Assembly: GCA_036444215.1 (NCBI GenBank)
Contig: JAZGAA010000006.1
Coordinates: forward strand, 1 to 59,942
Source: Minisyncoccota bacterium
GTDB taxonomy: Bacteria > Patescibacteriota > Minisyncoccia > UBA6257 > UBA9933
Direction: 5' to 3'
DNA length: 59,942 bases
Below, piece by piece: positions 8,812 through 46,662 of this stretch (position 1 is the first letter of the stretch; each line of letters opens with the position of its first letter). The notes below the pieces were generated by a model. The model ran no database searches, had not been told where the DNA came from, and saw only the letters and a program-made list of their open reading frames with translations. A program made the position numbers and the translations under genes.

Positions 8812-8813
8812 GG

Positions 8814-8836
8814 AAGGCCTGCTTTGTGGGCAGGCC
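8814..8836. terminator. GC hairpin between convergent rtcB and a small Zn-ribbon gene
   Basis: aggcctgc-tttgtgg-gcaggcct stem-loop followed by T-rich sequence. Confidence 0.5.
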
Positions 8837-8857
8837 TATATTGTATTAGATACGCAA

Positions 8858-9064
8858 CTAACGGAGTTCGCGAGAACGTTTTGCAATCGCATCGCGGATG
8901 AATTTCTGGTTCTGGTTGAGAATTTCAGGGCCCTTCTTTAAAAGTTCTCCGCAGACGCATTTTGTCGCTCCTATGGACGGATTTGGTATGCCACAATACT
9001 TACAAATCTTTCCTCCGATATCATCAAAAGTAAATTTCAGAGGTTTTTCTTTTGTTTTCAGCAT
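8858..9064 (-). CDS. small zinc-ribbon protein (hypothetical)
   Basis: 68 aa with CKYC...CVC cysteine pairs. No overlap with better-supported genes. Confidence 0.45.
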   Translation of the reverse strand: MLKTKEKPLKFTFDDIGGKICKYCGIPNPSIGATKCVCGELLKKGPEILNQNQKFIRDAIAKRSRELR

Positions 9065-9218
9065 TGTATCAATCCCCCTCTATTATTTTATATTTATAGT
9101 TAATATTAATAAAGCTAAAAGCAGTATAGCATACTTTTTTAGCTTTGTAAAGACCTGCTTTCTAAAATTCGTATTCATTAGTATAATTAGTATGAATTAG
9201 CATATTGGCATTACATTT

Positions 9219-10622
9219 ATGAAACTTACTTTTTATGGCGGGACTAAGACAGTTACCGGCGCTAACTACCTATTAGAGGAAAAAGGAAAGGGAAAAGAGG
9301 AATGTAAAATTCTTATTGACTGCGGTTTGTATCAAGGCAGTCGTTTTTGCGAGCGCCTTAATTTTGAACCGTTTCCGTATAATCCAAAAGAAATTGACGC
9401 GGTTTTAATTACTCATGCCCACATTGACCATATTGGCCGGTTGCCAAAACTTTATAAGGACGGGTTTCGCGGAAAGATTTTTTCAACTAAACCAACAAAA
9501 GAATTTGCCGAGCATCTTTTGGTTGATTCAGAAGGTATTTTAAGAAAAGAGGCCAAAAAAGATAAGCGTAAGCCAATTTATAATATTGAAGATATTAATG
9601 GAATGATGAAGTTGTGGGAAGGAATAGGGTATCATCAAAATATAAAGATTGGCGATTTTAATGTTGAGTTTTATGATGCCGGTCATATTCTTGGCTCAAG
9701 TTTTATTGCTGTTTCCAATAAAGCAGGCAAAAAAGTTGTTTTTTCAGGAGATTTAGGCAATGTTGCTACCCCTTTGGTTAAGGACACCGAGAATTTAGCT
9801 GAAGCTGATTACGTTTTAATTGAATCAACTTACGGGAATCGAATACACGAAAATTTAAACGAACGAAAAGACATGCTTGAAGATTTAATTGAAGAAACTT
9901 TTAAGGCAGGCGGCACGTTAATAATCCCAGCTTTTGCCATGGAAAGAACGCAGGATCTTTTATATGAATTAAACAGTTTAGTGGAAAATAAAAGAATACC
10001 AAAAGTTCCAATTTTTATTGACAGCCCCTTGGCAATTAGGTTAACAGAAGTTTATAAAAAATATTCTTCCAATTCGGAGTATTTTGATAAAGAGGCGATT
10101 AATCTGGCAAAATCAGGGGATTTAATATTTAATTTTCCCGGTTTAAAATTTACTTTAAAAACAAAACAATCAAAGGAAATTAAAAATGTGCCGCCGCCAA
10201 AAGTTATTATTGCCGGTTCTGGAATGTCGCAGGGCGGAAGAATTATTCACCATGAACGCCTTTACTTGCCCGATCCTAAAAGCACTATTTTATTTATTGG
10301 CTATCAAGCAATGGGTTCATTGGGAAGAAGGATTTTTGACGGCAATAGGGCTATTAAGCGTGGACTTGCTTCAACTAATTCCGTGAAAATTTTTGGAGAA
10401 GAAGTTTCAGTCAAATGCCGGGTTATGGCGATTGGAGGATATTCAGCTCATGCTGATAAGTTAAAGCTTTTAAGTTGGTTGAAGCCGATGCGCACTAAGC
10501 TTAAAAAAGTGTTTATAGTCCAAGGGGAAGGAGACCAGATGATACCATTGGCTCAAAAGATAAAAGATGAATTTGCCGTAGAAGCCATTATTCCTTCAAT
10601 GAAGGATGAGGTTGTGTTATAA
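9219..10622 (+). CDS. MBL-fold beta-CASP RNA-metabolising hydrolase (RNase J/CPSF-like)
   Basis: THAHIDHIG metallo-beta-lactamase motif, 467 aa, C-terminal GYSAHAD motif typical of beta-CASP nucleases. Confidence 0.75.
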   Translation: MKLTFYGGTKTVTGANYLLEEKGKGKEECKILIDCGLYQGSRFCERLNFEPFPYNPKEIDAVLITHAHIDHIGRLPKLYKDGFRGKIFSTKPTKEFAEHLLVDSEGILRKEAKKDKRKPIYNIEDINGMMKLWEGIGYHQNIKIGDFNVEFYDAGHILGSSFIAVSNKAGKKVVFSGDLGNVATPLVKDTENLAEADYVLIESTYGNRIHENLNERKDMLEDLIEETFKAGGTLIIPAFAMERTQDLLYELNSLVENKRIPKVPIFIDSPLAIRLTEVYKKYSSNSEYFDKEAINLAKSGDLIFNFPGLKFTLKTKQSKEIKNVPPPKVIIAGSGMSQGGRIIHHERLYLPDPKSTILFIGYQAMGSLGRRIFDGNRAIKRGLASTNSVKIFGEEVSVKCRVMAIGGYSAHADKLKLLSWLKPMRTKLKKVFIVQGEGDQMIPLAQKIKDEFAVEAIIPSMKDEVVL

Positions 10623-21927: not shown

Positions 21928-23660
21928 TTAATCAGGAAATCGCTAAAATTTTTTATGAAATTGCCCAATATTTGGAAATGGATGAAGTTGCTTTTAAGCC
22001 GCAGGCGTATGAAAAAGCAGCGCTGAATTTGGAAACTCTATCAGATGATGTTGAAGAAATTTATAAAAAAGGCGGTGTTGCAGCGTTGGAAAAAATTTCC
22101 GGTATAGGCAAGGCATTAGCAAAAAAAATCGTTGAGTATATAAAAACAGGGAAAATCAAAACACTCAAAAAACTCAAAAAGAAAACACCTGTAAATATTG
22201 AAGAATTAACAGCAGTTGAAGGATTAGGGGTTAAAAGAATCAAAATTTTATATAAAAAACTTGGAATAAAAAATTTAAAGGACTTAGAAAAAGCGGCAAA
22301 TAAAAATAAAATTTCTCCTTTAGCCGGTTTTGGCGAGAAAACAGAAAATAATATTTTAGATGGCATAAAATTTTTAAAAAGAAACAAAGGAAGATTTCTT
22401 TTGGGCGAAATTTTGCCTAACGTTTACAAGATTATTAATGAATTAAAAAAAGTAAAAGAAGTTAAAAAAATCTCTGAAGCCGGTTCAGTGAGGCGCAGAA
22501 AAGAAACTATTGGCGATGTTGATATTTTAATTGCCAGTCATAAACCTAAAAAAGTAATTAATTATTTTGTGTCTATGCCAGGCGTTGTTAGGGTTTGGAG
22601 TAAAGGGCCAACTAAGGCGTCTGTGCGTTTGAAAAAAGGATTTGACGCTGATTTAAGGGTTTTACCCGAGAAACAATTCGGTTCAGCTTTGCAATATTTT
22701 ACCGGCTCAAAAGAGCATAATATTGTTTTGAGAAAAATCGCCATTAATAAAGGTTTTAAACTTAATGAATATGGTTTGTTTAAAGGAAAAAAAATGATTG
22801 CTGGAAAAACCGAAGAAGAAATTTATAAAAAATTAGGAATGTCTTATATAGAGCCGGAATTACGCGAAAATCAAGGCGAAATTGAACTTGCCCTGAGTTC
22901 GCCGAAGGGGTTGCCAAAACTAATTAAACTAAATAATATTAAAGGCGACTTTCATTGTCATTCGCACTGGGGCGCTGGCAAAGGTAAACAAGGAATTGAA
23001 AATTTAGTTAAAACAGCTTTTGAGATTGGCTATAAATATATTGGTATAGCTGACCACACCAAGTTTTTGGCAATTGAACACGGTTTAAACGAAAAACAAT
23101 TAGCCCAACAGAGGAAATATATTAATAAATTAAATTCTAGATTCCAGATTCTAAATTCTAGATTCTCTATATTACAAGGTTGTGAGGCCAATATAATGGC
23201 GGACGGCTCAATAGACATAAAAGACGAAGTATTGGCTAAATTAGATTTTGTTATTGCCGGAGTTCATTCTCAGCTTAAAATGCCTAAAGAAAAAATGACT
23301 GAAAGAATTATTAAGGCAATGAGAAATCCTAATGTTGATATAATTTCTCATCTTACAGGAAGGGTTATTCAGCATCGTGATGAATGCGAAATTGATTTTG
23401 ATAAAATATTAAAAGTCGCCAAAGAAACAGGCACGATTTTAGAAATTAACGCTTATCCTGTGCGTCTTGATTTAAAAGACATAAATATCAGAAAAGCCAA
23501 AGAAATGGGCGTAAAGATGATTATTAACACGGACGCTCATCAGTCAGAACAGATGTATTTTATGGATTACGGAGTCAGTCAAGCCCGCCGCGGCTGGGCA
23601 GAGAAAAAGGATATTGTTAATTGTTTGCCAGTGGAAAAATTATTAAAAATGTTAAAATAG
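21924..23660 (+). CDS. polX: DNA polymerase X family protein with C-terminal PHP domain
   Basis: HhH motifs (ISGIGKALAKKI, VEGLGVKRI), GSVRRRKETIGDVDIL nucleotidyltransferase motif, PHP motifs GDFHCHS and NTDAH. Confidence 0.88.
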   Translation: MINQEIAKIFYEIAQYLEMDEVAFKPQAYEKAALNLETLSDDVEEIYKKGGVAALEKISGIGKALAKKIVEYIKTGKIKTLKKLKKKTPVNIEELTAVEGLGVKRIKILYKKLGIKNLKDLEKAANKNKISPLAGFGEKTENNILDGIKFLKRNKGRFLLGEILPNVYKIINELKKVKEVKKISEAGSVRRRKETIGDVDILIASHKPKKVINYFVSMPGVVRVWSKGPTKASVRLKKGFDADLRVLPEKQFGSALQYFTGSKEHNIVLRKIAINKGFKLNEYGLFKGKKMIAGKTEEEIYKKLGMSYIEPELRENQGEIELALSSPKGLPKLIKLNNIKGDFHCHSHWGAGKGKQGIENLVKTAFEIGYKYIGIADHTKFLAIEHGLNEKQLAQQRKYINKLNSRFQILNSRFSILQGCEANIMADGSIDIKDEVLAKLDFVIAGVHSQLKMPKEKMTERIIKAMRNPNVDIISHLTGRVIQHRDECEIDFDKILKVAKETGTILEINAYPVRLDLKDINIRKAKEMGVKMIINTDAHQSEQMYFMDYGVSQARRGWAEKKDIVNCLPVEKLLKMLK

Positions 23661-25430: not shown

Positions 25431-25775
25431 TGGAGATGGGGGTATTGAAACCCCGTCCAAAGATTGTCCAAAAAAATTTCTACAAGCTTAGCCTAATTAG
25501 AATTAAGAATTAAGAAGTATGAATTAAGCAAAACCCTCTTAATCCTTTGCCGAAAGTGTTCTCACTAAAATTGGCAATTTAAGCGAGTAAGCTCAAAATA
25601 TTACACCCAGTTCTTCAACTTGAGCAATTAAAGGTGGATGCTGCTTTAAGCAAAAGCTAAAGCAGGTGCTAATCTGTTTTTTGCAGATATAGTTTAACTC
25701 GGTGATTTGCGAGGTAACGAGTCATCCTCGGCTTGCAATTTTTTTAAAAGATCTCCGTCGAAGCCTTACATCCCC
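25431..25775 (-). ncRNA. ssrA: tmRNA (SsrA), one-piece
   Basis: 5' GGGGATGTAAGGCTTCGACGG pairs with 3' ...GGACGGGGTTTCAATACCCCCATCTCCA, including a G3:U pair. Tag ORF GCAAAAAACAGATTAGCACCTGCTTTAGCTTTTGCTTAA encodes AKNRLAPALAFA* (25646-25684). Lies directly downstream of smpB. Confidence 0.88.
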
Positions 25776-26305: not shown

Positions 26306-27973
26306 ATGAATACAATGGTTAAAGTAAAAATTATTAATTATCTTAAAGAAGTTGTTAAAGAACCTGTGTCAATTGAAGTTTTCGTGCCGGATAATGAAAA
26401 ATTCGGGCATTATTCCACAAATGTCGCTTTGAAATTGGCAAAATTACGCAAGCAGAATTCGATGACTGTTGCTGAAGAGATTAAAAGCGTACTATCACGC
26501 GTAGTAGTAAAAGATTTTTTTAAAAAAATTGAGATTGCTCCTCCGGGATTTATAAATTTCTGGCTGTCAGAAAAAACTCTACAAGATAAAATAAAAGAAA
26601 TTTTGAAGAAAGAAAAGAAATACGGCCAACAACTAAAAGCTAAAAGCTCAAAGCTAAAAGCTATTAGCATTGAATTTATTTCCGCTAATCCTACTGGACC
26701 TTTGACTATTGGCAATGGCAGGGGAGGTTTTTTGGGTGATGCATTGGCAAATATTTTGAAATTTCAAGGAAATAAAGTAGTAAAGGAATATTATATTAAT
26801 GACGCTAAAGCAAGCACTCAGATTAGAGAATTAGGGAAAACGGCGGTTGGAATCGGTAAAAGCTACAAAACAAAAGATTTAGAATTAAAAATCAAAAAAT
26901 TAGGGCCAAAGAAAGCCAAAAATTACAGCGACGCTGGATATTTGCTTGCGAAAATAATCCAAGAAGATAACAAGAAGTTTATTGAAAATAAATTAAAAAT
27001 AAAATTTGACAAATGGTTCAGCGAAGAAAACCTGTATAAAAGTGGAGCTGTTGAAAAGTTGCTGGGAGAATTAAAAAAGAAAAATTTAATTTACAAAAAA
27101 GACGACGCTATATGGTTTAAATCAAAACAATTTGGCGATAACGAAGACAGGGTTTTGGTACGGCAACCCCGCGTAGCGGGGCAAGCAGGAGAACCGACAT
27201 ATTTTTTGCCGGATCTTGCTTATCATTTAAATAAATTCAAAATTCGTAAATTTAACAAAGTTATAGATATTTGGGGAGCTGACCACCATGGTTACAGTCC
27301 TCGGCTTAAAGCCGGTCTTAAAGCTTTTGGTATAGCTGATGAAAAACTCAAAATTATCATTAGCCAATTAGTCCGTTTAATTAAAAAAGGCAAAGAAACG
27401 AAAATGTCAAAAAGAAAAGGAGAGTATGTGAGCTTGGAGGAATTAATAGATGAGGTTGGTTTGGACGCGGCGCGATTTTTCTTTTTAATGTATTCGCCGA
27501 ATACTCATATGGATTTTGATTTGGATTTGGCAAAAGAGAAATCATTAGAGAACCCGGTTTATTATGTGCAATACGCTGCCGTAAGATGCGATAGCATACT
27601 CAAAAAACCCAAATTCCAAAGCCCAAATTCCAAACAAATTCCAAAGCCCAAATTCCAAAACCTAAAATTATTAAACACAAAAGAGGATTTAAATTTAATA
27701 CGGATGTTGGTGAGGTTTCCGGAAATTATTGAAGAAGCAGCGCAAAATTACAGCCCGCAAATTTTAGTGCGATATTCTTTGGATTTAGCGCGGCAATTCC
27801 ATAATTTTTACGAAAAAGAACACATCATCGCGGACCTGCGCGGACTTAACGCGGACCAATACAGACAAAGTATGGATTTTATGTTTGCGCGTTTGGCTTT
27901 AATTCAGGCAACATTAGTAATTTTTAAAAATACATTCAACCTTTTGGGCATCACATTGCCGAAGAAAATGTAG
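26306..27973 (+). CDS. argS: arginyl-tRNA synthetase
   Basis: SANPTGPLTIGNGRG (HIGH region), DHHGY, MSKRKG (KMSK). ATG at 26306 or 26315 preferred over the 26276 start that overlaps smpB. Carries four in-frame repeat insertions. Confidence 0.9.
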   Translation: MNTMVKVKIINYLKEVVKEPVSIEVFVPDNEKFGHYSTNVALKLAKLRKQNSMTVAEEIKSVLSRVVVKDFFKKIEIAPPGFINFWLSEKTLQDKIKEILKKEKKYGQQLKAKSSKLKAISIEFISANPTGPLTIGNGRGGFLGDALANILKFQGNKVVKEYYINDAKASTQIRELGKTAVGIGKSYKTKDLELKIKKLGPKKAKNYSDAGYLLAKIIQEDNKKFIENKLKIKFDKWFSEENLYKSGAVEKLLGELKKKNLIYKKDDAIWFKSKQFGDNEDRVLVRQPRVAGQAGEPTYFLPDLAYHLNKFKIRKFNKVIDIWGADHHGYSPRLKAGLKAFGIADEKLKIIISQLVRLIKKGKETKMSKRKGEYVSLEELIDEVGLDAARFFFLMYSPNTHMDFDLDLAKEKSLENPVYYVQYAAVRCDSILKKPKFQSPNSKQIPKPKFQNLKLLNTKEDLNLIRMLVRFPEIIEEAAQNYSPQILVRYSLDLARQFHNFYEKEHIIADLRGLNADQYRQSMDFMFARLALIQATLVIFKNTFNLLGITLPKKM

Positions 27974-28002: not shown

Positions 28003-31000
28003 ATGGAAGAAAAAATTTTAAAATTTTGGCAGGAAAATCAAATCTTTGAGAAATCCGTTGAGAAAGATGCGCCTCGCGGTGATTTTGTTTTTTATGACGG
28101 TCCGCCTTTTGCCACAGGAAGTCCTCATTACGGCCATATTTTGGCAAGCATTATAAAAGATGTCATTCCAAGATACCAAACAATGAAAGGTAAAAGAGTT
28201 CCGCGTAAATGGGGTTGGGATTGTCATGGTTTGCCAATTGAGAATTTAATTGAGAAAAATCTAAATCTTCAGAGCAAAAAAGACATTGAAGAATACGGAA
28301 TTGAAAAATTCAATAAAGCAGCTCAAGAAAGCGTTCTTCAATACGCTGATGAATGGAAAAAAATTATTTCAAGAATAGGAAGGTGGGTTGATATGGAAAG
28401 AGATTATAGAACAATGGATTGGAAATATACTGAATCGGTTTGGTGGGTTTTTAAAAAACTTTACGATAAAGGGCTTATTTACGAGGGATATAAATCAATG
28501 CATATTTGTCCGCGCTGCGAAACTACTTTATCTAACTTTGAGATTACACAGAATTATCAGGACATTAAAGATATATCAGCTACGGTTAAGTTTGAGCTGG
28601 AAGACGAGCCGGGTACTTTCATTCTGGCTTGGACAACTACGCCATGGACTCTGCTGGGGAACGTCGCTTTAGCTGTTAATCCTGATATAGAGTATAGAAA
28701 AGTTAAATCAGGAGAAAGTTTTTTTATCGTTGCCGAAAAACGATTAGCGGCATTATTTCCATTTAAAGGAGAAACTGTGCTACATAAATTTTTTAAAGGC
28801 AAAGAACTTGTTGGCAAAAAATACAAACCACTTTTTGATTATTACACAAAAGATAAAGATTTAGAGAATCGTGAGAACGGCTGGAAAATTTACAGCGCGG
28901 ATTTCGTAACAATTGAAGAAGGAACTGGCGTTGTTCATATTGCTCCTGCTTTTGGTGAAGATGATATGAATTTGGGGCAAAAAGAAAAATTGCCTTTTAT
29001 TCAGCATGTTGCAATGGATGGAAAATTTAAGAAGGAGGTTAGGGAATTCGTTGGCCTTTCAGTAAAGCCAAAATCTGAACATCAATCAACTGACGTAGAA
29101 ATTATTAAATACCTTGCTAAAAATAATAAACTTTTCTCTAAAGAATCAATAACTCATTCCTACCCGTTTTGCTGGCGGTGTGACACTCCGTTGTTAAATT
29201 ACGCAGCAAACTCATGGTTTGTAGAAGTAGATAAGATTAAAAAGAAACTAATAAAGAATAATAAGAAGATAAATTGGGTGCCATCGCATTTAAAATACGG
29301 TCGTTTTGGTAAATGGCTTGAAAACGCCCGCGACTGGGCTATTTCTCGTTCAAGGTATTGGGGCGCTCCTTTGTCTATTTGGAAATGTGAAGAATGTAAA
29401 AAAATAAAAACAATCGGCTCAATTAACGATTTAAAAAAAGAATCCAAAAAATCCAAAAACAGATATTTTGTAATACGTCATGGAGAATCAGAAAGTAATG
29501 CTCAAAATATTGTTAGTTCAAAATTAGAAACCAGCTCTAAACATCCGCTTACGGAAAAAGGAAAAAAAGAAGTCAAAGAAACAGCTAAAAAATTAAAAAG
29601 CGAAAATATTGATTTGATTTTTTCTTCTGATTTTACTCGTACTAAAGAAACTGCTGAAATTGCGGCAGATAATTTGGGTATTAGTAAGGATAAAATAATT
29701 TTTGATAAACGCCTTCGCGAAGTAAATACCGGCATTTTTGACGGCAAAAAACCTGAAGAATATAAAGCTTATTTTTCCTCTCTTGAAGAAAAATTTTTCA
29801 AAACTCCTCCTGAAGGCGAGAATTTAATGGAACTCAAGAATAGGGTGAGCGAATTTTTGTACGTTCTTGAGAGTAAATATTCAGATAAGAATATTTTAAT
29901 TATTAGCCATGAGTATCCGATTTGGCTTTTATTTGCCGGTGCTAACGGGTTCAATAGCAAAGAGTCAGTTGAAATCAGAAAAGACAAACCCGATTTTGTT
30001 AAAACAGGTGAAATAAGAAAATTAGATTTTGTTCCTTTACCGCATGATAAGAATTATGTTTTAGATTTACACAGGCCGCATATTGATAATATTGAGTTTC
30101 AATGTTCTTGCGGCGGAGCTATGAACCGCGTACCAGAAGTTTTTGACTGCTGGTTTGAGTCCGGTTCAATGCCTTACGGACAGGCGCATTATCCTTTTGA
30201 AAACAAAAAAGAATTTGAGAAAAATTTCCCGGCGGAATTTATTGCAGAAGGAATTGATCAAACAAGGGGTTGGTTTTATACATTACTTGTTCTTTCAACT
30301 GCTTTATTTAATAAACCAGCTTATAAAAACGTAATTGCGAATGGAATTATTTTGGCGGAAGATGGTCAAAAAATGAGTAAGCGTTTAAATAATTATCCGG
30401 ATCCAACAGAAATTATTAATAAATATGGAGCTGATGCGCTTCGTTATTATCTTCTTTCTTCACCGGCAGTGCGTGGCGAGAGTTTGAATTTTTCCGAAAA
30501 AGGAGTTGATGAAATTAATAAAAAAGTGGTTTCAAAATTAAGAAATGTTTTATCTTTTTATAAGATGTATGGTTTGGGACTAAAAACCGAAAACCAAAAA
30601 CTAAAAGCTAATAATGTTTTAGATAAATGGATTTTAGCGAAATTTAATATTTTAACAAAAGACGTTTCAGAAACACTTGATAATTATGAGTTAGACAGGG
30701 CAGTTAGGCCGATAGGGAATTTTGTTGATGATTTGTCTAATTGGTATGTGAGGCGGTCGCGAGAAAGGTTTAAGAGCGAAAGCCAAGATAAAGATAACGC
30801 TTCTGCGACGTTGAGTTATATTTTAATTGGGTTTTCTAAAATAATCGCGCCATTTATGCCGTTTGTTGCGGAGGAAATATACCAGGAATTTACAATAGAG
30901 AAAGGGAGCGTGCATTTAGAAGAGTGGCCTCAAGGCAAAGAAACATTAAAAGAAGACAAAAAGATTTTAGATGAAATGAAAGAGGCAAGAGAAAATATCG

Positions 31001-31449
31001 TATCTATTGCTATGGAGCAAAGGCAAAAAGCGGACATTGGAGTGAGGCAAGTGCTAAGCGTTTTTAATACAACATCTTCTATTACAAATACTGATATTCT
31101 CGAAACTGTTTTAAAAGAAATTAACGTAAAAGAAATAAAAACTAACCAAAAAGAAAATAAATTAGACATAATTATTACCCCTGAATTAAAAAATGAAGGC
31201 GTTGTTCGCGAATTTGTCCGCAAAGTTCAGGATTTGCGCAAAAAAGCCGGCTATCAACCAAAAGACAAAATTTATTTATGGATTGAAACCTTAAGCGAGA
31301 CAGAAAGCATATTAAACAAGAACATTGATAAATTCAAAAAAGATATTGGCGCTAAATCTATTGAGTTTAGGCGAACTGAAAAATTTGACGCAGAATTAGA
31401 AAGTAAAATTAACAGCGAAAAAATCTGGCTCGGAATTAAGAAAATATAA
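28003..31449 (+). CDS. ileS: isoleucyl-tRNA synthetase (type 2/eukaryote-like) with an inserted histidine-phosphatase domain
   Basis: PPFATGSPHYGH (HIGH), editing-domain WTTTPWTL, GIDQTRGWFYTL, KMSKRL. Residues ~485-685 carry RHGES...SSDFTRTKETA...ISHE histidine-phosphatase motifs. Confidence 0.92.
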   Translation: MEEKILKFWQENQIFEKSVEKDAPRGDFVFYDGPPFATGSPHYGHILASIIKDVIPRYQTMKGKRVPRKWGWDCHGLPIENLIEKNLNLQSKKDIEEYGIEKFNKAAQESVLQYADEWKKIISRIGRWVDMERDYRTMDWKYTESVWWVFKKLYDKGLIYEGYKSMHICPRCETTLSNFEITQNYQDIKDISATVKFELEDEPGTFILAWTTTPWTLLGNVALAVNPDIEYRKVKSGESFFIVAEKRLAALFPFKGETVLHKFFKGKELVGKKYKPLFDYYTKDKDLENRENGWKIYSADFVTIEEGTGVVHIAPAFGEDDMNLGQKEKLPFIQHVAMDGKFKKEVREFVGLSVKPKSEHQSTDVEIIKYLAKNNKLFSKESITHSYPFCWRCDTPLLNYAANSWFVEVDKIKKKLIKNNKKINWVPSHLKYGRFGKWLENARDWAISRSRYWGAPLSIWKCEECKKIKTIGSINDLKKESKKSKNRYFVIRHGESESNAQNIVSSKLETSSKHPLTEKGKKEVKETAKKLKSENIDLIFSSDFTRTKETAEIAADNLGISKDKIIFDKRLREVNTGIFDGKKPEEYKAYFSSLEEKFFKTPPEGENLMELKNRVSEFLYVLESKYSDKNILIISHEYPIWLLFAGANGFNSKESVEIRKDKPDFVKTGEIRKLDFVPLPHDKNYVLDLHRPHIDNIEFQCSCGGAMNRVPEVFDCWFESGSMPYGQAHYPFENKKEFEKNFPAEFIAEGIDQTRGWFYTLLVLSTALFNKPAYKNVIANGIILAEDGQKMSKRLNNYPDPTEIINKYGADALRYYLLSSPAVRGESLNFSEKGVDEINKKVVSKLRNVLSFYKMYGLGLKTENQKLKANNVLDKWILAKFNILTKDVSETLDNYELDRAVRPIGNFVDDLSNWYVRRSRERFKSESQDKDNASATLSYILIGFSKIIAPFMPFVAEEIYQEFTIEKGSVHLEEWPQGKETLKEDKKILDEMKEARENIVSIAMEQRQKADIGVRQVLSVFNTTSSITNTDILETVLKEINVKEIKTNQKENKLDIIITPELKNEGVVREFVRKVQDLRKKAGYQPKDKIYLWIETLSETESILNKNIDKFKKDIGAKSIEFRRTEKFDAELESKINSEKIWLGIKKI

Positions 31450-32373: not shown

Positions 32374-33693
32374 ATGCACATAATTAACAAAAAAGAACTA
32401 TCAAGAACTCCTTTACGAGAAAAGGCGCTTTTGATTGCTGAAGCGGGTTATGACGCGATTGATATTGAGAAAGCAGTTAGTCAAAAAATAAAATTTCAGA
32501 ACAATAAGTTGTCTATCGCCAAGGGTATTACCGGAGAATATTTAGAATTTGATTTAAGTGATTATAAAAAAGTTTTTCTTATTGGTATTGGCAAAGGGTC
32601 TTCACTTGCCGTAATGACATTGGCAGGGATTTTAGCGCCTTTAGGTTCACGGTTTTCAGGCGGTATAGCCCTGGATATTAAAATCCCAAATAAATCCCAA
32701 AGCTCAAATTCCAAAATAGAATTTTTAACAGGCACGCATCCTATTCCGTCAAAACAAAATATTGAAGCCACTCAAAAAATTATTAAATTAGTAAAAAGCT
32801 TAGATGAAAACGATTTACTCATTGCTTTTATTTGCGGAGGCGGTTCAGCTTTGTTTTGCTGTTCAGAACAGGAATCAGAAGAATCAGCTTTGGCTATAAA
32901 ATTTTTAACAAAAGCCGGAGCTGATATTTTTGAATTAAATACAATTCGCAAGCATTTATCAGAGTGTAAGGGCGGCGGATTGGCAAAAACCGCTTATCCG
33001 GCAACTGTAATTTCTTTAATTGCGTCAGATGTTTGCGGCAATGATTTATCCATAATAGCTTCCGGTCCTACGGTTTTTGACGAAACTACTAAAAAGGATG
33101 CTGAAAAAGTTTTACAAAAATATGAATTAGATTTAAATCAATTTCATTTATCCGAGACCCCTAAAGACAAAAAATATTTTGAGAAAGTTAAAAACATTCT
33201 TTTTGTTTGTAATCAGGATGCGATTTCAGCAATGGTTGAAAAGGCGAAAGAAATCGGCTTTGAGCCGAGAATTTATTCTTTGGAATTGCGAGGTGAGGCG
33301 AAAGATGTGTTAATACCGATGATTAAAGAAGTGAAGTCCGGCGAGGCGATTTTGGCTGGCGGAGAAACAACGATTACCTTAGGCAGCGGACCAACAGGCA
33401 AAGGCGGACGAAATATGGAATCTGTTTTAGGCGCAATAACTAATTTTCAAGAGGTACTACCCCACGGGGTAGTAGCGCTTTCAATGGCAAGCGATGGCCG
33501 TGATAACACCGAGGCCGCTGGCGCGATTGTTGATGCTTCAACCCAAGAAAAAACAAAAGAATTGGGTTTGAGTCCAGAAGAATTTTTAGAAAACCATAGT
33601 TCGTTTAATTTTTTTGAAAAAACCGGAGATTTAATTTTTACCGACCAAAAGAGTTTCAACATAGCGGATTTGATGGTAATATTAAAGATATGA
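32374..33693 (+). CDS. glycerate 2-kinase (DUF4147/MOFRL family)
   Basis: GIGKGS, GGGSAL, KHLSECKGGGLA and GGETTITL...GKGGRNMES motifs. Confidence 0.75.
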   Translation: MHIINKKELSRTPLREKALLIAEAGYDAIDIEKAVSQKIKFQNNKLSIAKGITGEYLEFDLSDYKKVFLIGIGKGSSLAVMTLAGILAPLGSRFSGGIALDIKIPNKSQSSNSKIEFLTGTHPIPSKQNIEATQKIIKLVKSLDENDLLIAFICGGGSALFCCSEQESEESALAIKFLTKAGADIFELNTIRKHLSECKGGGLAKTAYPATVISLIASDVCGNDLSIIASGPTVFDETTKKDAEKVLQKYELDLNQFHLSETPKDKKYFEKVKNILFVCNQDAISAMVEKAKEIGFEPRIYSLELRGEAKDVLIPMIKEVKSGEAILAGGETTITLGSGPTGKGGRNMESVLGAITNFQEVLPHGVVALSMASDGRDNTEAAGAIVDASTQEKTKELGLSPEEFLENHSSFNFFEKTGDLIFTDQKSFNIADLMVILKI

Positions 33694-36095
33694 AGCCTTT
33701 TATCAAAAAATTTGAAGAAGTGAGTATGAAGAATGTTTCCGAGGTGGGCGGGAAGAACGCTTCGCTTGGCGAAATGATTCAGAATTTAGTTCCTAAAGGA
33801 ATTAATATTCCAAGCGGTTATGTTATTACGGCCAGCGCTTATCGTTATTTTCTTCAGAAAACCGATTTAAAAAAATTTATTAAGAAAACTATACAAGGAT
33901 TAGATACAAGAAATCTTCACGATTTGGCTAGGTGTGGAAAACTTATCCGCGAAGCAATTAAACAATCCGAATTTCCAAAGGATTTAACAAGAGCGATTAT
34001 TACTGCTCATCGCAGGGCTGAAAAGAAATACGGCAAGAATGCTGATTTTGCGGTTCGTTCCAGCGCCACGGCCGAGGATATGCCTGGAGCCAGTTTTGCT
34101 GGGCAGATGGAAACTTATCTAAACGTTCGCGGCGAGGAAAATATCTTAAAAGCCGTGCGAGCAGCCATGGCTTCTCTTTTTACTAATCGTGCTATTTCTT
34201 ATAGAAAGGATAAAGGATTTGACCACTTTAAGGTGGCGCTTTCAGTTGGCGTTCAGAAAATGGTGCGTTCGGATTTAAGCTGTTCAGGTGTTTTGTTTAC
34301 TTTAGATACAGAATCCGGTTTTCCTGATTTGGTTTTAATTAACGGTTCTTGGGGATTGGGCGAGATGATTGTTCAGGGCGAAGTAACTCCGGACGAATTT
34401 TTGGTTTTTAAAAAGACAGGCGCGATTATCGGCAAAGAGCTTGGAATGAAAAGGAGAAAGATGATTTACGGCAAAGGGAATAAGCCAACCAAAGTTATTT
34501 CTACCTCACAAAAAGAAAGAGAATCATTTATTTTATCTGATAATGAAATTTCGCAACTGGCCAAATGGGGAATGTTGGTTGAAGAGCATTATTCAAAGAG
34601 AAATAAAGGCAAGTGGACTCCGATGGATTTAGAATGGGCAAAAGACGGAAAAACCAAAGAGATGTTTGTTGTTCAGGCTCGCCCAGAGACAGTCCATGCT
34701 TTGCGGGATTTTTCAAAAATTAAGGAGTATAAGTTGGTAAGCACTAAACCTAATACCATAAACCCTAAACCCATCGTCATCGGCGCCTCTGTTGGCAGTA
34801 AAATTGCCGTTGGTAAGGCAAGGGTTATTTTAGATACAAAGAAGATTAAAGAATTTAAAGCAGGAGAAGTTTTAGTTACCGGTATGACAGATCCTGATTG
34901 GGAGCCGATAATGAAAATTGCTTCAGCAATTGTAACGGATAAAGGAGGTCGGACAAGTCACGCCGCAATAGTAAGTCGTGAACTCGGCATTCCCTGTATT
35001 GTTGGTTCGGAAACCGCCACTAAAAAAATTAAAACTGGCCAGACAATTACCGTTGATACTACCGGCAGTGATGGGTTTGTTTATGATGGCGCTTTGAAAT
35101 TTAAAATAACAGAACACAATGTTAAAAAAATACCAAAACCAAAGACAAAAATAATGATGAATATTGCCACACCAGAAACAGCTTTTGAAAAATCATTTTT
35201 ACCCAATGAAGGCGTAGGGTTGGCAAGAGAGGAATTTATTATTGCCAGCGATATTGGTATTCACCCAATGGCAATTATTGAATACCAAAAACTTAAAAAT
35301 TCAAAGCTAAAAGCACAAATAAATAAAAAAACTATTGGATGGAAAGATAAAAAGCAATTTTACATTGATAAACTCGCTTTTGGGATTGCGAAAATCGCAG
35401 CAGCTTTTTATCCTAAGCAGGTAATTGTTCGCTTTTCTGATTTTAAGACAAACGAATATCGTTCGCTGGTTGGTGGTGAAATTTACGAGCCAGTTGAAGA
35501 AAATCCAATGCTTGGTTGGAGAGGAGCTTCCAGATATTATCACCCTAATTTTGCGCCGGCATTTGTCTTAGAGGTTAAAGCAATTAAAAAAGTCCGTGAA
35601 AATATGGGATTAGATAATGTGGAAGTAATGATTCCATTTTGTAGGACAGTTGAAGAAGGTAAAAAGGTTTTGCAAATAATGGCAAAAAACGGACTAAAAA
35701 CTAAAAGCTCAAAGCTAAAAACTTACGTGATGTGCGAGATTCCTTCTAATGTGGTTTTAGCTGACGAATTTTTGAAAGTTTTTGATGGAATGAGTATTGG
35801 CTCAAACGATTTAACGCAATTAACCGTAGGAATTGACCGCGATGGCAATGAGCAAATCCGCAGTATTACTAATGAGAAAGACGAATCAGTTAAAAAACTA
35901 ATTGCAGAAGTTATTAAAAAATGCCTCGCTAAAAAGAAATATATCGGAATTTGCGGTCAGGCTCCATCCGACTTTCCGGAATTCGCTGAATTTTTGGTTG
36001 AGCACGGAATTGAAAGCATTTCCTTGAATCCAGACACAGTAGTTAAAACAACTCAAAAGATTTACCAAAAAGAGAAGAAATTACGAAAGAAATAG
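33690..36095 (+). CDS. ppsA: phosphoenolpyruvate synthase (pyruvate, water dikinase)
   Basis: VGGKNASLGEM, RSSATAEDMPGASFAGQ, phosphohistidine GGRTSHAAIVSRELGIP, C-terminal PEP-utilising IGSNDLTQ. Confidence 0.93.
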   Translation: MKPFIKKFEEVSMKNVSEVGGKNASLGEMIQNLVPKGINIPSGYVITASAYRYFLQKTDLKKFIKKTIQGLDTRNLHDLARCGKLIREAIKQSEFPKDLTRAIITAHRRAEKKYGKNADFAVRSSATAEDMPGASFAGQMETYLNVRGEENILKAVRAAMASLFTNRAISYRKDKGFDHFKVALSVGVQKMVRSDLSCSGVLFTLDTESGFPDLVLINGSWGLGEMIVQGEVTPDEFLVFKKTGAIIGKELGMKRRKMIYGKGNKPTKVISTSQKERESFILSDNEISQLAKWGMLVEEHYSKRNKGKWTPMDLEWAKDGKTKEMFVVQARPETVHALRDFSKIKEYKLVSTKPNTINPKPIVIGASVGSKIAVGKARVILDTKKIKEFKAGEVLVTGMTDPDWEPIMKIASAIVTDKGGRTSHAAIVSRELGIPCIVGSETATKKIKTGQTITVDTTGSDGFVYDGALKFKITEHNVKKIPKPKTKIMMNIATPETAFEKSFLPNEGVGLAREEFIIASDIGIHPMAIIEYQKLKNSKLKAQINKKTIGWKDKKQFYIDKLAFGIAKIAAAFYPKQVIVRFSDFKTNEYRSLVGGEIYEPVEENPMLGWRGASRYYHPNFAPAFVLEVKAIKKVRENMGLDNVEVMIPFCRTVEEGKKVLQIMAKNGLKTKSSKLKTYVMCEIPSNVVLADEFLKVFDGMSIGSNDLTQLTVGIDRDGNEQIRSITNEKDESVKKLIAEVIKKCLAKKKYIGICGQAPSDFPEFAEFLVEHGIESISLNPDTVVKTTQKIYQKEKKLRKK

Positions 36096-36559: not shown

Positions 36560-37798
36560 ATGAAAATTACAGACGTTAATATTAAAATCATTTCAGATTC
36601 TCGCGGCAAAGAAACATTGGAAGCGGAATTAAAAACCGCGGATATTTCTGTATCCGCAAGCGTGCCAGCCGGCAAAAGCACTGGAACGCATGAGGCGTTT
36701 GTTTTAGAGCCAAAAAACGCTCTAAAAAAATTTGAAGAAATAAAAAGCAAAGTTTTAGGACAGGATTTTAACAAACAGGAAGATTTTGATAATTTTTTAA
36801 TTTCTTTAGATGGCACTTCTAATAAACAAAATCTTGGAGGTAATTTGATTTTAGCTTTGTCTTTGTCTTGGGCAAGATTGAAAGCAAAAAATGAAGGGAA
36901 AGAATTATTTCAATATATAAATAAGGAACTAGGAACTAGTAATCAGGAAATAGGAACGCCGAGGCCGGTTTTTAACGTTATTAACGGTGGAGTGCACGCT
37001 ACCCATCCAAAGTCAAAGTTAGAATTTCAGGAATTCCAAGTAATACCAAGCGTAGAAGATTTTGGCATTGCTTTAAGTGTTGGCAGGGAATTTTACCGCA
37101 AACTTCAAACATTGTTGGAAAATAAATTTGGCAAGGAAAATATTTCTTTGGGTGATGAAGCCGGCTTTTCAGCTCCATTCAAAAATAATGAAGAAGCAAT
37201 TGAAGTTTTGGCTGAATTAATAGATAAGCATAGTTATCCTTTAAGGATTGGATTGGATATAGCAGCTTCACAATTTTACAAATCAGGCGGATTTCTTAGA
37301 GAATCAGGGTATGTTGTTGACGGCAAGAAACACTCAGTAGAAGAACTAAAAGATTTATATTTAAAATTGATTGAAACGTATAATATTTTATCAATTGAAG
37401 ACCCTTTTTATGAGGAATCATTTGATTCATTCGCTTCGCTCACCGCGGACTCACGCGGACTGGACGCGGATAGACGCGGACTATTAGTGATAACGGACGA
37501 TTTAACAACCACTAATCCAGAACGTTTAAAAACAGCAATTAATAAAAAATCCGGCAACGCAATTTTAATAAAATTAAATCAGATAGGAACATTAACAGAA
37601 ACTCTAAAAGTTGTTAAACTGGCTTATGAGAATAACTGGCAGGCAATAGTTTCGCACAGGAGCGGCGAAACAATGGATGATTTTATTGCTGATTTGGCTG
37701 TTGGTATTAACGCATGGGGCATTAAAGCCGGCGCGCCGGCAAAACCGGAAAGATTAATAAAATACGAACGAGTTTTGGAGATAGTTGATAAAAAATAA
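36560..37798 (+). CDS. eno: enolase (divergent)
   Basis: IISDSRGKETLE, SVPAGKSTGTHEA, NVINGG, GDEAGF, SIEDPF, DDLTTTNP, IKLNQIGTLTE, SHRSGET. Start at the ATG preceded by aaaaagga. Confidence 0.9.
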   Translation: MKITDVNIKIISDSRGKETLEAELKTADISVSASVPAGKSTGTHEAFVLEPKNALKKFEEIKSKVLGQDFNKQEDFDNFLISLDGTSNKQNLGGNLILALSLSWARLKAKNEGKELFQYINKELGTSNQEIGTPRPVFNVINGGVHATHPKSKLEFQEFQVIPSVEDFGIALSVGREFYRKLQTLLENKFGKENISLGDEAGFSAPFKNNEEAIEVLAELIDKHSYPLRIGLDIAASQFYKSGGFLRESGYVVDGKKHSVEELKDLYLKLIETYNILSIEDPFYEESFDSFASLTADSRGLDADRRGLLVITDDLTTTNPERLKTAINKKSGNAILIKLNQIGTLTETLKVVKLAYENNWQAIVSHRSGETMDDFIADLAVGINAWGIKAGAPAKPERLIKYERVLEIVDKK

Positions 37799-42169: not shown

Positions 42170-42214
42170 TATGGCATAATCCTGAACATTTACAATTATA
42201 TAAATTACTTGCGA

Positions 42215-42266
42215 ATCATTGCAGCTTTTAGGTCAGCCGGCTGGCCGAGCTAAAAGCTGCAATGAT
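42215..42266 (+). promoter_or_regulatory. perfect 17-bp-stem hairpin in the leader of the 42301 gene
   Basis: atcattgcagcttttag ... ctaaaagctgcaatgat. The 18-nt loop is itself GC-rich and nearly self-complementary (ggtcagcc/ggctggcc). Confidence 0.8.
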
Positions 42267-42300
42267 GCGGCAAATCAAATATAAAAGGAGGAATTACGTT

Positions 42301-43081: not shown

Positions 43082-43917
43082 TAATAATACAGATATGAAA
43101 ATGTTGATGAAAATATCCGGCGGCTGAAAAACGGCGAATTTTCTATGTTCGCAATTTCAGTCCGCTAAACAGCGGATTTTTTGTTTTCTGAATGGATAGT
43201 TTTTTGACAAATACGTGAATCGCTCGAATTTCAAACAAATGATAACGAATTTCAAACGAATATTTTTATTCGTTTTACATTCATTTTAATTCGTTAATTA
43301 TTTGGGCGAAAGACGCGTTATAAAACAATTATTCGAGTCCTCGAATCCTAAATATGGATTTAAGAGACAAAATTTTTTTAAGGGCGTATGGTGGATGCCT
43401 TGACATCAAATGACGATGAAGGACGTGGCGTGGCTGCGATAAGCTTCGGGGAGGTGCTTAGCAACTTTTGATCCGGAGATTTCCGAATGGGGAAACCTAA
43501 TTACGTAAACCGTAATTGGCTCTATTTTTAAAAATAGAGCAGTATATCCGCTGAAGTGAAACATCTCAGTAAGCGGAAGAAAAGAGAAAAATTTTTATTC
43601 CCTAAGTAGCGGCGAGTGAAAAGGGAGGAGCCCAAACCGAGCACATAATTTTTTATATGCTCGGGGTTGTAAGAATTTCACGCTACTTTATTAATCACAG
43701 AGTTCCACCTTTAAGGGATTCTGTGATTTATGAAGAAAGGAAAGGTTATAAAATTATTTGTTAGCTGAACCTGCTGGAAAGCAGGACCAGAGGAGGTGAT
43801 AGTCCTGTAGGCGAAAACGAATAATCCTTTTAGTGGATTATCTTGAGTACCTCGATGACAGAATACTTCGAGGGAATCATCCGGCACTATCCGGAAAGGC
43901 TAAATACATTTGATGAT

Positions 43918-43956
<39 letters not shown>

Positions 43957-44126
43957 GGCCGGCGAGGCCGTTGAAATAGAACCTGAAACCATATGCTTAC
44001 AAGGAGACGGAGCCCGCAAGGGTGACGTCGTGCCTATTGAAGAATGAGCCAACGAGTTTATGTATATCGCTAGTTTAAATCCTACGGGATGAAAGCGTAG
44101 GGAAACCGAGTGTTAAAAGCGCGTAT

Positions 44127-44295
44127 GCCAGTGCTTCGCACTGGAAATTCCAAATTCCAAATCTCAAATCACAAATAAATCTCAAATCCCAATTTTCAAA
44201 ATTCCAAACACGTTTTGGTCATTTGAATTTTGGTTATTGATGCTTGTTTGTTATTTGGTGCTTGTTATTTGGTGCTTCCAATGCGCAGTATTGGT
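44127..44295 (+). repeat. 169-nt hairpin insertion at the 23S helix-25 position (IVS-like), copy A
   Basis: Interrupts ...GAGTGTTAAAAGCGCGTAT | TGGCGGTATGTGTAAGACCCGAA. Terminal mini-hairpins gccagtgcttcgcactgg and ccaatgcgcagtattgg. A/C-rich arm faces a G/T-rich arm. Confidence 0.85.
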
Positions 44296-44810
44296 TGGCG
44301 GTATGTGTAAGACCCGAAGCCAAGCGAGCTTGCCCTGGCCAGGATGAACTTCGACGAAAGTCTAAGGGAGGTCCGCACCAGTAGATCGTTCAAAATCTTT
44401 GGATGAGCTGGGGTAAGAAGTGAAAAGCTAATCGAGCTTGGTAATAGCTGGTTCTCTCCGAAATAGTTTTAGGACTAGCGTTTAGAAAAAACCTTTATGG
44501 GGTAGAGCTACTGGTTGAGAAGTAAAGGGGGAAACCTCGGCTTTTCAGTCAAACTCCGAATACATAAAGGATTGTCTAAGCAGTTAGACCATGGGGGCTA
44601 AGCTCCATTGGTCAAAAGGGAAACAGCCCTGATCGTCGTCTAAGGTCCCTAAATATTTGCTAAGTGTTAAAAAGGTAGTAATTCGCCATAGACAGATAGG
44701 AGGTTGGCTTAGAGGTAGCCATCCTTTAAAAAGTGTGTAACAACTTACTATTCGATGGCGGGTTGCGCCGAAAATTTAGCGGGGCTAAGCAAATTACCGA
44801 AGACACGAAT

Positions 44811-44979
44811 GCCAGTGCTTCGCACTGGAAATTCCAAATTCCAAATCTCAAATCACAAATAAATCTCAAATCCCAATTTTCAAAATTCCAAACACGTTTT
44901 GGTCATTTGAATTTTGGTCATTGGTGCTTATTTGTTATTTGGTGCTTGTGATTTGGTGCTTCCAATGCGCAGCATTGGT
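44811..44979 (+). repeat. 169-nt hairpin insertion at the 23S helix-45 position (IVS-like), copy B
   Basis: Interrupts ...GGGGCTAAGCAAATTACCGAAGACACGAAT | GTGGTAGGAGAGC. Differs from copy A at about five positions, all in the 3' arm. Confidence 0.85.
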
Positions 44980-45731
44980 GTGGTAGGAGAGCATTTCAAT
45001 CGCGCTGAAGTGCGACCCGCGAGGGCGCATGGAGCGTTTGGAAGAGAAAATGTTGGTATGAGTAACCGCAAAGCCGACGAGAAGTCGGCTCCCCGAAAAT
45101 CCAAGGTTTCCTCCGCAACGGAAATCGACGGAGGGTTAGGCGATCCTAAGGCAATGGCGAAAGCCGGAGCCGATGGACAGCTGGTTAATATTCCAGCCCG
45201 CCGGGCATAGTTCGATGGAGTGACGGAGAAAAAAAGATTAAGCATCTTAATGGTTTGGTGTTATTGGTTATTAGAATTGCTGTTTAGGTAAATCCGGACA
45301 GCTGCTTTAAATGGCGGGATTCGCAAACCGATAAAACTTCAGTTCGCTGAAGAATTTAATTGAAGAGTCTTCCGAGAAAAACTTCTAAGATTTCCTATGT
45401 TCGGCTTCGTACCGGAAACCGACACAGGTGGATGAGGCGAGGAGCCTCAGGGGAACGAGTGAGTCCTCGTTAAGGAACTCGGCAAAAAAGCGGGTGTAAC
45501 TTCGGGATAAACCCTGCCGCCTAAGTTTTTGTTTTACAAAAATTTTGGCGGCCGCAGCGAAAGTATCCCTGGCGACTGTTTACCAAAAACACAGCTCCCT
45601 GCGAACTCGTAAGAGGATGTATAGGGGGTGACGCCTGACCGATGCGAGAAGGTTAACGGCGGCGGTTTTTTTAAAAGCAATTTTGAGAAAGCTGACTGCC
45701 CGAAGCCCTCGTCAATGTCAGCGATAACTAT

Positions 45732-45997
45732 AAGTAACGATTGTAGTTGTAAAATTTGGCTATATGCTGGAAAGCCCTTAGGGCTGATAAAACCAAAACA
45801 GTAATCTGAAAAGATAAGCTGACGGTTTAAAAATTTATCAGATTGGGTAATCAGCAGGAAAGACTCCTAAGGTAAATCTAAGGAGAATCCTCAGAGACTA
45901 TACGCCAAATCTTATTAAAAATAAGAATGATATAGTCCGAACTCTATGGCGACATAGAGAGTTGTCTAAATTAAACTAGACAGAATAACACATAATG
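45732..45997 (+). mobile_element. group I intron in 23S at E. coli-equivalent position L1917 (H69 loop), ORF-less
   Basis: Exon junction ...GATAACTAT | AATCGTTCTAAGGTAGCG restores the H69 context. 5' exon ends in T and the intron ends in G. Core motifs TATATGCTGGAAA, AATCAGCAGGAAA, CCTCAGAGACTATACG, GATATAGTCCGAAC. Confidence 0.8.
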
Positions 45998-46336: not shown

Positions 46337-46662
46337 TCCTTAATGTAATTTGCACCTCCGTGCAATTACGAGGGGGACCTATTGCCGTGAGGCGATACGG
46401 AAAAACTATCTATATGCTGGAACATCCGCGAGTATCTTGGAGTACTTGTTCTAAATATTATTAAAGGACAGTAAAAATCTTTCAAGTGATGCGGACAATC
46501 AGCAGGAAACCAAATTCAATATATTGAGAGTGGGATCCTCAGAGACTACACGATAGCAACTTTTTATAAAAAAGAGTTGATAATATAGTCCGAACTGCGT
46601 AGCGATGCGCAGAGGATTGCATTATTAGTAATGTAATCTACCTAATAAAAATATAAATTAGG
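46337..46662 (+). mobile_element. group I intron in 23S just 3' of the H80 P-loop hairpin, ORF-less; paralog of the L1917 intron
   Basis: Interrupts ATATGGGGCGTAT | ...GCCTAAAAAGTAACGGAGGAG. Same core motifs as the L1917 intron (TATATGCTGGAAC, AATCAGCAGGAAA, CCTCAGAGACTACACG, AATATAGTCCGAAC). Boundaries +/-10 nt. Confidence 0.7.

Follow-up and report, generated by a model that had tools for sequence, protein, structure and literature searches.

The 59,942-nt contig JAZGAA010000006.1 of a Minisyncoccota bacterium (assembly GCA_036444215.1), hereafter the window, carries an arginyl-tRNA synthetase (ArgRS) gene in which a 66-nt segment, 27603-27668, is probably a translated DNA array of heptanucleotide period, situated in the anticodon-binding (DALR) domain of a functional enzyme, in a surface loop that is disordered. 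Period-7 arrays as a class are about 20-fold enriched in this clade of Patescibacteria, and they show clear marks of selection against stop codons. The peptide encoded by the ArgRS insert probably has no specific function in itself.

The window has a GC content of 36%. Its RNA genes include a 4.2-kb 23S rRNA gene interrupted by group I introns, one tmRNA gene and ten for tRNAs. The nearest homologues of its ArgRS carry the source labels Patescibacteria, Paceibacterota or Candidatus Wolfebacteria. The following ArgRS features were identified:

26315-27973, + strand: intact ArgRS gene with the Pfam domains Arg_tRNA_synt_N, tRNA-synt_1d and DALR_1; product, cluster P0001 (552 aa); gene call on NCBI contig JAZHCD014117065.1.
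27603-27668, + strand: in-frame heptanucleotide-period array composed of CCAAATT/CCAAAGC units plus one irregular CAAA+CAAATTC unit; peptide KKPKFQSPNSKQIPKPKFQNLK, residues 430-451 of 552.
26633-26663, + strand: second array, CTAAAAG repeated 4.4 times; peptide LKAKSSKLKAI, a coil at residues 103-115 in the AlphaFold2 model.

The called start of the gene is the ATG at 26315. The letters of the 66-nt repeat and its in-frame translation are exactly as quoted in an initial annotation of this DNA, made from the letters alone. Parsed in 7-nt steps, it reads AAAAACC CAAATTC CAAAGCC CAAATTC CAAA CAAATTC CAAAGCC CAAATTC CAAAACC, i.e., four units, an irregular CAAA and four further units. Tandem Repeats Finder (TRF) reports it as a 14-nt unit (two 7-nt half-units) repeated 4.2 times and as a 25-nt unit repeated twice with 100% identity. 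The segment is unstructured, with a minimum free energy (MFE) of 0 kcal/mol. The AlphaFold2 model of ArgRS, based on a 43-sequence alignment, has a mean predicted local distance difference test score (pLDDT) of 90.7; the insert forms a coil at residues 431-449, where confidence in the model is lowest (pLDDT <50 at residues 435-441). The equivalent loop is present in the Campylobacter ArgRS structure 3fnr, where it is about 6 residues shorter, and the loop of the window ArgRS is about 7 residues (21 nt) longer than in most orthologues of the clade.

A period scan of the window, counted against shuffled sequence and with TRF run alongside, revealed 13 arrays of period 7 (0.5 in the shuffle), 13 of period 14 (0.15) and 10 of period 21 (0.25), while all other periods gave 0-4 arrays each. 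The distribution of the arrays was studied in ten related genomes, the window and L082-L090, which were reached via ArgRS orthologues of 52-70% identity and comprise 218 kb in total. As a control we used 1.25 Mb around the ArgRS genes of 77 other bacteria (77 of the 80 loci of a broad ArgRS pattern scan lay outside the candidate phyla radiation, CPR). In total, 63 period-7 arrays were found in the ten genomes, i.e., 29 per 100 kb, versus 1.3 per 100 kb in the controls and 0.86 per 100 kb in their low-GC part (350 kb); three more distant Patescibacteria loci contained one array or none each. When only ArgRS genes were considered, 19 arrays were present in the 10 clade genes and 2 in the 60 control genes. 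In L085, ten arrays were located within 9.8 kb, seven of them in the IleRS gene, including the near-perfect (CAGGAAT)4.6, (AAAATCA)4.4 and (CAAGATT)4.6.

The initial annotation had described only inserts built from the words of hairpin insertions in the 23S rRNA gene. This description proved too narrow, as such inserts make up a small part of a clade-wide excess that involves many different units. It should be mentioned that an assembly artefact was rejected, the arrays recurring in independent NCBI, ENA, JGI and Logan assemblies; a phase-variable contingency locus was likewise rejected, the arrays lying mid-gene in essential enzymes, with tracts interrupted by substitutions. The literature searched contained no paper on heptanucleotide arrays in coding genes of CPR/Patescibacteria, an absence that is not proof of novelty.

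Purging from coding DNA is the expected fate of repeats whose unit length is not divisible by three. Here, 50 of the 63 arrays (79%) were located in coding sequences, which account for 86% of the DNA, so the depletion from open reading frames (ORFs) that is typical of such units is not seen. Since 7 shares no factor with 3, every frame of an array runs through one and the same set of seven codons, and the peptide has a 7-residue period. Several of these peptides recur across orthologues: KIKNQKS (encoded by AAAATCA), SIKHQAS (ATCAAGC) and VKCQMSN (GTCAAAT). There were 13 coding arrays whose consensus unit would make an in-frame stop; in all 13 the codon concerned was substituted, and in five this substitution was the sole mismatch of the array. 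The second ArgRS array has a single mismatch, CTAAAAG to CTCAAAG at 26647, which changes a would-be in-frame TAA to TCA. Cyclically stop-free units were found in 35 of 50 coding arrays versus 4 of 13 non-coding ones, the share among random heptamers of the same composition being 48%. In addition, the sense strand contained more A than T in 44 of 50 coding arrays, among them all three in minus-strand genes, which suggests, on a small sample, that the orientation of the array follows the gene. The statement of the initial annotation that the inserts always occupy a frame without stop codons holds for ArgRS but is uninformative there, since the core of the array is open in all three plus frames and also in two minus frames. 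The removal of would-be stops by single substitutions indicates that the repeat is primary and its coding secondary.

Arrays of the same kind, three of them again with a substituted would-be stop, were revealed in other genes of the window, as well as in its tmRNA gene and spacers:

6317-6350, + strand: CCCTAAA array in a Mur ligase gene; the would-be TAA reads TAT (CCCTAAA to CCCTATA at 6335).
7131-7171, + strand: AAAACTA array in the archease gene.
23131-23166, + strand: ATTCTAG array in PolX (LNSRFQILNSRFS), a member of the general class without AAATTCC words; the would-be stop TAG is CAG.
30583-30611, + strand: AAAACCA/CTAAAAG array in IleRS.
35693-35720, + strand: ACTAAAA array in the gene of a phosphoenolpyruvate (PEP)-utilising enzyme, peptide LKTKSSKLK; the would-be TAA reads TCA.
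36920-36957, + strand: AGGAACT array of 7/21-nt period in the enolase gene.

These features bear on an alternative explanation, namely that no DNA-level element exists and a low-complexity linker rich in K, N and S was selected as protein in an AT-rich genome, its words resulting from codon bias or chance. The 36% GC of the genome, the hydrophilic and disordered character of the peptides and the shorter loop of 3fnr agree with it. A linker selected as protein should, however, be periodic in 3, 6 or 9 nt, whereas the arrays have periods of 7, 14 or 21 nt and the unit is read in all three phases; the arrays are more than 20-fold enriched both over dinucleotide shuffles and over the 350 kb of low-GC control DNA; mismatches fall exactly at would-be stops; and the same words are present in non-coding hairpins. 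We give this alternative almost no credence.

Comparison of the genomes showed that arrays with different units occupy the same loops. In ArgRS, such loops lie at residues ~53-76, 103-117, 186-206 and 422-455, the last of them containing arrays in eight of the ten genomes. The loop of the second ArgRS array also holds arrays in L082, L083, L086 and L088; the PolX loop at about residue 405 does so in the window, L084, L086 and L088, and the glycerate-kinase loop at ~103-117 in the window, L082 and L084. In the PEP-utilising enzyme of L082 the array at the same loop is 13 aa longer. In L087, whose ArgRS orthologue has 52% protein identity, the insert loop holds an AAATCCC/AAATTCC array that includes the same irregular unit and is 82-85% identical to that of the window. 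The presence of arrays at the same loop in eight genomes, together with the L087 version, argues that the insert is not a recent insertion private to this genome. The closer relative L082 has ATCAAGC at the insert loop, versus CCAAATT in the window.

A close strain pair bears on turnover: L090 (8660-8715) and L091 (11265-11350), two strains 99.5% identical over 9.47 kb that differ essentially only in the ArgRS loop cassette, which is a 52-nt (GTCAAAT)n cassette in one case and an 82-nt cassette in the other. The 82-nt cassette contains, at 11295-11326 of L091, a GC-clamped, UUCG-looped hairpin translated in frame (CCCCGCACAAATTGCTTCGCAATTTAACGGGG). This exchange points to the ArgRS loop as a localised hotspot of recombination or replacement. 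Among close protein variants no 7-residue steps were found; the indels were recombination mosaics (P0003/P0016), GC-rich inserts (P0039/P0127) and whole-loop swaps (P0109/P0143). The lengths of perfect runs show a period-7 excess that begins at about 2.4 copies, which fits single +21-nt jumps and the decay of longer arrays alike.

The ArgRS insert shares its words with another gene and with non-coding hairpins of the window:

32679-32722, + strand: in-frame array, KIPNKSQSSNSKIE, in a gene for a putative glycerate kinase (DUF4147+MOFRL); the hairpin arm and the second half of the ArgRS insert are both collinear with it.
44125-44294, + strand: hairpin element, copy 1, in the 23S rRNA gene after E. 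coli position ~652; MFE -63 kcal/mol, z -7.1.
44809-44980, + strand: hairpin element, copy 2, in the 23S rRNA gene, replacing E. coli positions 1164-1184; MFE -63.5 kcal/mol, z -6.1.
55205-55320, no strand assigned: diverged member of the word family, a hairpin in the spacer lying upstream of the ORF at 55326; z -3.6.

The folding values confirm that the 23S hairpin insertions reported in the initial annotation are real. The word AAATTCCAAA occurs 14 times in the window compared with 1.6 +/- 1.2 times in dinucleotide shuffles, and none of 100 shuffles reached 14, so that the word enrichment holds when checked. Of these copies, ArgRS has four and glycerate kinase has one; each 23S hairpin contains three and the intergenic hairpin a single one (at 55294), while the remaining two are isolated. 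In ungapped alignment, the ArgRS insert has 45 identities in 57 positions to the A/C-rich arm, in either 23S hairpin, and the glycerate-kinase run has 31 in 37 to this arm (79-84% identity for the two inserts). The glycerate-kinase run also has 32 identities in 36 positions to the ArgRS insert, in the second half of the latter. These matches agree with the kinship that had been proposed for these loci. The score of ArgRS against the arm was 33, versus 16.5 +/- 1.5 (maximum 20) for mononucleotide-shuffled queries. The irregular 11-nt unit CAAA+CAAATxx is in register between ArgRS and the arm (CCAAACAAATTCC vs ACAAATAAATCTC) and is common to ArgRS, glycerate kinase, the hairpin arm and L087. Under a stricter null, in which the heptamer units were kept and only their order was permuted, p was 0.036 for ArgRS to the arm, 0.0095 for glycerate kinase to the arm, 0.0075 for glycerate kinase to ArgRS and 0.0105 for ArgRS to the L087 ArgRS loop. 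When the 3' arm of the 23S element is reverse-complemented, the 5' arm of the intergenic hairpin matches it with 85% identity. Judged from these alignments, the ArgRS insert, the glycerate-kinase insert, the 23S A/C-rich arm and the diverged intergenic hairpin form one sequence family, which is well supported at the level of words and reasonably supported at the level of unit order.

Two further loci had been assigned to this family. The run in PolX is a genuine heptamer array, but its words are not shared: its best match to the hairpin or any other locus scores 15, versus 14.6 for shuffled queries. The run in IleRS is not a member:

29437-29459, + strand: ESKKSKN run in IleRS, of 9-nt period, in the linker ahead of the His_Phos_1 domain.

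Its length is kept in the relative L082 (KKESKKSKNRYF vs KKNTKKSGNKYF), which identifies it as a linker and not an insert. The domain that follows is an inserted histidine phosphatase (His_Phos_1) at residues 489-654 of the product of the IleRS gene (28003-31449), and it is kept in all relatives with the gene (L082-L085, L088, L089). Pairing in trans between the ArgRS array and the 3' arm of the 23S hairpin was considered and rejected, since its energy (-36.7 kcal/mol, versus -41.2 for the arm's own partner) is equalled or bettered by several unrelated windows and gives no specific signal.

Likeness between loci could also arise by pure growth of simple sequence repeats in situ, locus by locus, with no copying between loci and with the resemblance to the hairpin arm due to convergence from unit preference and codon or stop constraints. 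The location of arrays at orthologous loops across genomes, near-perfect arrays of the type usual for simple sequence repeats and the many units that are only one or two substitutions apart all fit this explanation; so do the p values for collinearity with the arm, only ~0.01-0.05, and the equal conservation of array and flanks between the window and L087, as vertical descent predicts. Several observations are less easily accommodated. Units within one substitution of each other make up 17% of array pairs inside a genome, at non-homologous loci, versus 8.2% between genomes (permutation p<0.0005); ArgRS and IleRS of L082, for example, share ATCAAGC, and in L084 the unit GTCAAAT is common to PolX, ArgRS and glycerate kinase. 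Moreover, the irregular 11-nt unit is common to four loci, and fairly close relatives such as the window and L082 have unrelated units at orthologous loops. Growth in situ alone is therefore a possible but unlikely explanation.

The hairpin element itself consists of a 5' hairpin (CCAGUGC-UUCG-GCACUGG), a long hairpin of heptamer period and a small 3' hairpin, the latter with compensatory changes (CCAAUGC/GCAUUGG, CCACUGC/GCAGUGG, CCAACGC/GCGUUGG). Its termini are near-invariant: CCAGTGCTTCGCACTGG ... CCAATGCG.AGCATTGG. The second copy in the window replaces what we take to be the tip of helix 45 of E. coli 23S rRNA, corresponding to positions 1164-1184. Helix 45 is among the common sites of 23S intervening sequences, IVSs (PMC4990558). 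A search of Rfam with the element returned no family, only far sub-threshold look-alikes of miRNA precursors. An exact 24-mer of the terminus, CCAGTGCTTCGCACTGGAAATTCC, was found in six metagenome contigs from organisms of 40-59% GC:

L093 (195-385), L094 and L098 (2850-3040): 5'-domain site of 23S rRNA.
L097 (455-622): helix 45 of 23S rRNA in an organism of 50% GC.
L095 (8625-8790) and L096: in or beside RNase P RNA in an organism of 59% GC (RF00010, E 9e-23).

The occurrence at different 23S sites and at RNase P RNA, combined with the absence of an Rfam family, indicates that the element is dispersed in its own right. Other insertions were noted in the same rRNA gene of the window: three group I introns at 45659-45959, 46348-46612 and 46870-47139, the third of which scores under the Rfam gathering threshold (38.4 bits, E 1.5e-8) and follows E. 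coli position 2449, and a 105-nt insertion at 43642-43746 after E. coli position ~277. Just upstream of the gene there are two further hairpins, 43220-43309 and 42212-42269; one has a 21-nt period (CGAATTTCAAAC...) and arms that are 72% complementary, and the other is GC-rich with arms 89% complementary.

The dispersal of the element raises the question of whether the coding copies are relics of complete elements that transposed into ArgRS and glycerate kinase and then lost the G/T-rich arm and the termini, in the manner of transposable elements of the miniature inverted-repeat type (MITEs) such as the Rickettsia palindromic elements (RPEs). The element is evidently mobile or horizontally spread, with three copies in the window and its 24-nt terminus in other organisms; strains 99.5% identical differ in whether their ArgRS loop has a two-armed GC-clamped hairpin; and in-frame MITE insertions are documented in Rickettsia (PMC10969869). 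In the ArgRS and glycerate-kinase copies, however, no second arm and no element termini were found, no target duplication was evident and there were no intermediates. Most coding arrays, moreover, have units to which none of the hairpins seen corresponds, and arrays recur at the same loops. Nothing shows that copies devoid of the conserved terminal hairpins are truncated insertions of the element, and we consider a MITE-like origin improbable. The related claim that coding DNA contains only one arm of the element stands for ArgRS and glycerate kinase, but it does not extend to relatives, whose coding DNA includes the two-armed hairpin of L091 (11295-11326) and an array of the opposite-strand type in L085 (AGAATTT at 4745).

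On balance, we favour the view that the inserts are heptanucleotide arrays at the DNA level, presumably made by slippage or templated copying, and then filtered by selection. Several points weigh against it. First, the arrays are read as translated segments from ORFs, so their expression as protein is a prediction. Second, the plus-strand genes of the window share one orientation, and the sense-strand rule leans on only the three arrays in minus-strand genes. Third, between the window and L087 the ArgRS array and its flanks are conserved to much the same degree (82%, with 75-87% in the flanks and 66% gene-wide); this could mean constraint on the peptide or the RNA rather than neutrality, and it is better explained by vertical descent or recombination of the whole segment than by independent recent insertion. 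Fourth, no unit-step slippage was found in L090/L091, the only available close pair, which differ by replacement of a whole cassette. Fifth, the near-perfect 4.5-copy arrays in the IleRS gene of L085 are puzzling, as slippage by one unit would shift the frame of essential genes. Finally, when unit composition is kept, the significance of the collinearity with the hairpin arm is only modest.

If arrays do originate at the DNA level, it can be supposed that slipped-strand or 'stuttering' replication, in units of 7 nt, generates and renews them, and that copying or recombination between arrays or alleles may contribute. Polymerase slippage has been proposed for heptanucleotide repeats, the most abundant long class of simple sequence repeats in many prokaryotes according to the summary of Mrazek et al. 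(2007) in PMC4679880 (see also PMC4692102). Selection would then pass only net length changes divisible by three, variants free of stops and the orientation that encodes hydrophilic peptides of K, N, Q, S and P, and such variants would survive only in loops that tolerate extra disordered residues. In RNA genes (rRNA, RNase P RNA) and in spacers, the same material may be kept as two-armed hairpins, an extension of a helix being tolerated there.

A bolder version, which we consider doubtful, is that an active templated process in this Wolfebacteria-like clade places cassettes of heptanucleotide period in the permissive loops of essential genes and makes those within one genome alike, either by 7-nt-specific polymerase stuttering or by copying (template switching or reverse transcription) from hairpins excised from rRNA or RNase P RNA. 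If so, the same sequences would provide both hairpin expansions in structured RNAs and new disordered protein loops, and ultra-small genomes would possess a route dedicated to innovation in protein loops; the G/U-rich arm of the hairpin could in addition base-pair in trans with mRNAs bearing the A/C-rich arm.

Four known systems were compared with the arrays. RPEs and MITEs are the closest functional analogue: in both cases one short DNA family is found in frame in unrelated housekeeping genes, at sites compatible with the fold, and has related copies outside ORFs (PMC10969869). Here, the in-frame arrays occupy permissive sites of ArgRS, glycerate kinase, PolX, IleRS, the PEP-utilising enzyme, enolase, Mur ligase and archease. 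RPEs, however, are palindromic units of ~150 bp translated as a conserved peptide, whereas the coding copies described here are neither palindromic nor bounded by termini; they are 25-66 nt long, single-armed and unstructured, consist of 7-nt tandem units of many types and recur at orthologous loops.

The closest mechanistic class is that of heptanucleotide simple sequence repeats (Mrazek et al., 2007; the cyanobacterial STRR repeats, TAACTGA and GGGNATC), whose 7-nt units are likewise over-represented and genome-specific, as far as the accounts in PMC4679880 and PMC4692102 go. The cases on record are mainly intergenic and under-represented in ORFs, whereas here 79% lie in ORFs, including those of essential aminoacyl-tRNA synthetases, with stops edited out.

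In 23S IVSs, which occur at helices 9, 25 and 45 and are excised by RNase III, an extended stem-loop replaces the tip of a helix, as copy 2 in the window does at helix 45 (PMC4990558). Unlike IVSs, the hairpin element, known here from its sequence, is located also at E. coli position ~652, at a 5'-domain site elsewhere and in or next to RNase P RNA, and its arms are heptamer-periodic. We know of no IVS with one-armed relatives inside protein genes. Finally, the tandem repeats of Borgs resemble the arrays in being A-rich, genome-specific and fast-evolving and in making new disordered hydrophilic segments within ORFs (PMC9879509). The unit lengths of Borg ORF repeats are all divisible by three (PMC9879509), in contrast to the 7-nt units studied here, through which the reading frame rotates.

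Dense 7-nt arrays in essential genes imply that a 7-nt-specific mutational process is unusually strong and that a heavy load of frameshifts stays hidden. They also represent a concrete DNA-level source for the variable disordered loops that hamper the alignment and annotation of CPR proteins, and peptide signatures such as KIKNQKS, SIKHQAS, VKCQMSN and LKTKSSK flag array-derived segments in databases. The shared words tie protein-coding inserts to an element whose hairpins enlarge 23S rRNA and RNase P RNA, so that one family would be present in two kinds of genes with different rules of tolerance.

Besides the heptamer arrays, ArgRS contains a second class of translated insert, a GC-clamped mini-hairpin at 27164-27193 (CCCCGCGTAGCGGGGCAAGCA) that encodes QPRVAGQAGE. 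Inserts of this class are present or absent between near-identical strains; the ArgRS proteins P0039 and P0127, 96.5% identical, differ by a 20-residue PARRPIRQSLSVGGSFDAGG insert. In addition, GC-rich repeats of ~10 nt based on GCGGAC (CGCGGACTNA) are translated in frame in ArgRS (27825-27859), enolase (37428-37483) and glycerate kinase (33381-33411). The ArgRS copy gives ADLRGLNADQYRQS, and at that site relatives hold other GC-rich inserts (PARRNFNEGG, PPSLKLRRAS). In L086, a reverse-transcriptase gene (RVT_1, 410 aa) is located at 8290-9522, directly upstream of ArgRS.

It should also be mentioned that tmRNA genes of the clade contain heptamer arrays of CTTAATT, or of CTAAATT plus the complement TAGAATT (window 25499-25528, minus strand; L082 9042-9381; L085 2422-2453). 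The coding arrays at 6317-6350 and 34744-34774 use CCCTAAA, the complement of the plant-type telomere repeat TTTAGGG, which is probably a coincidence.

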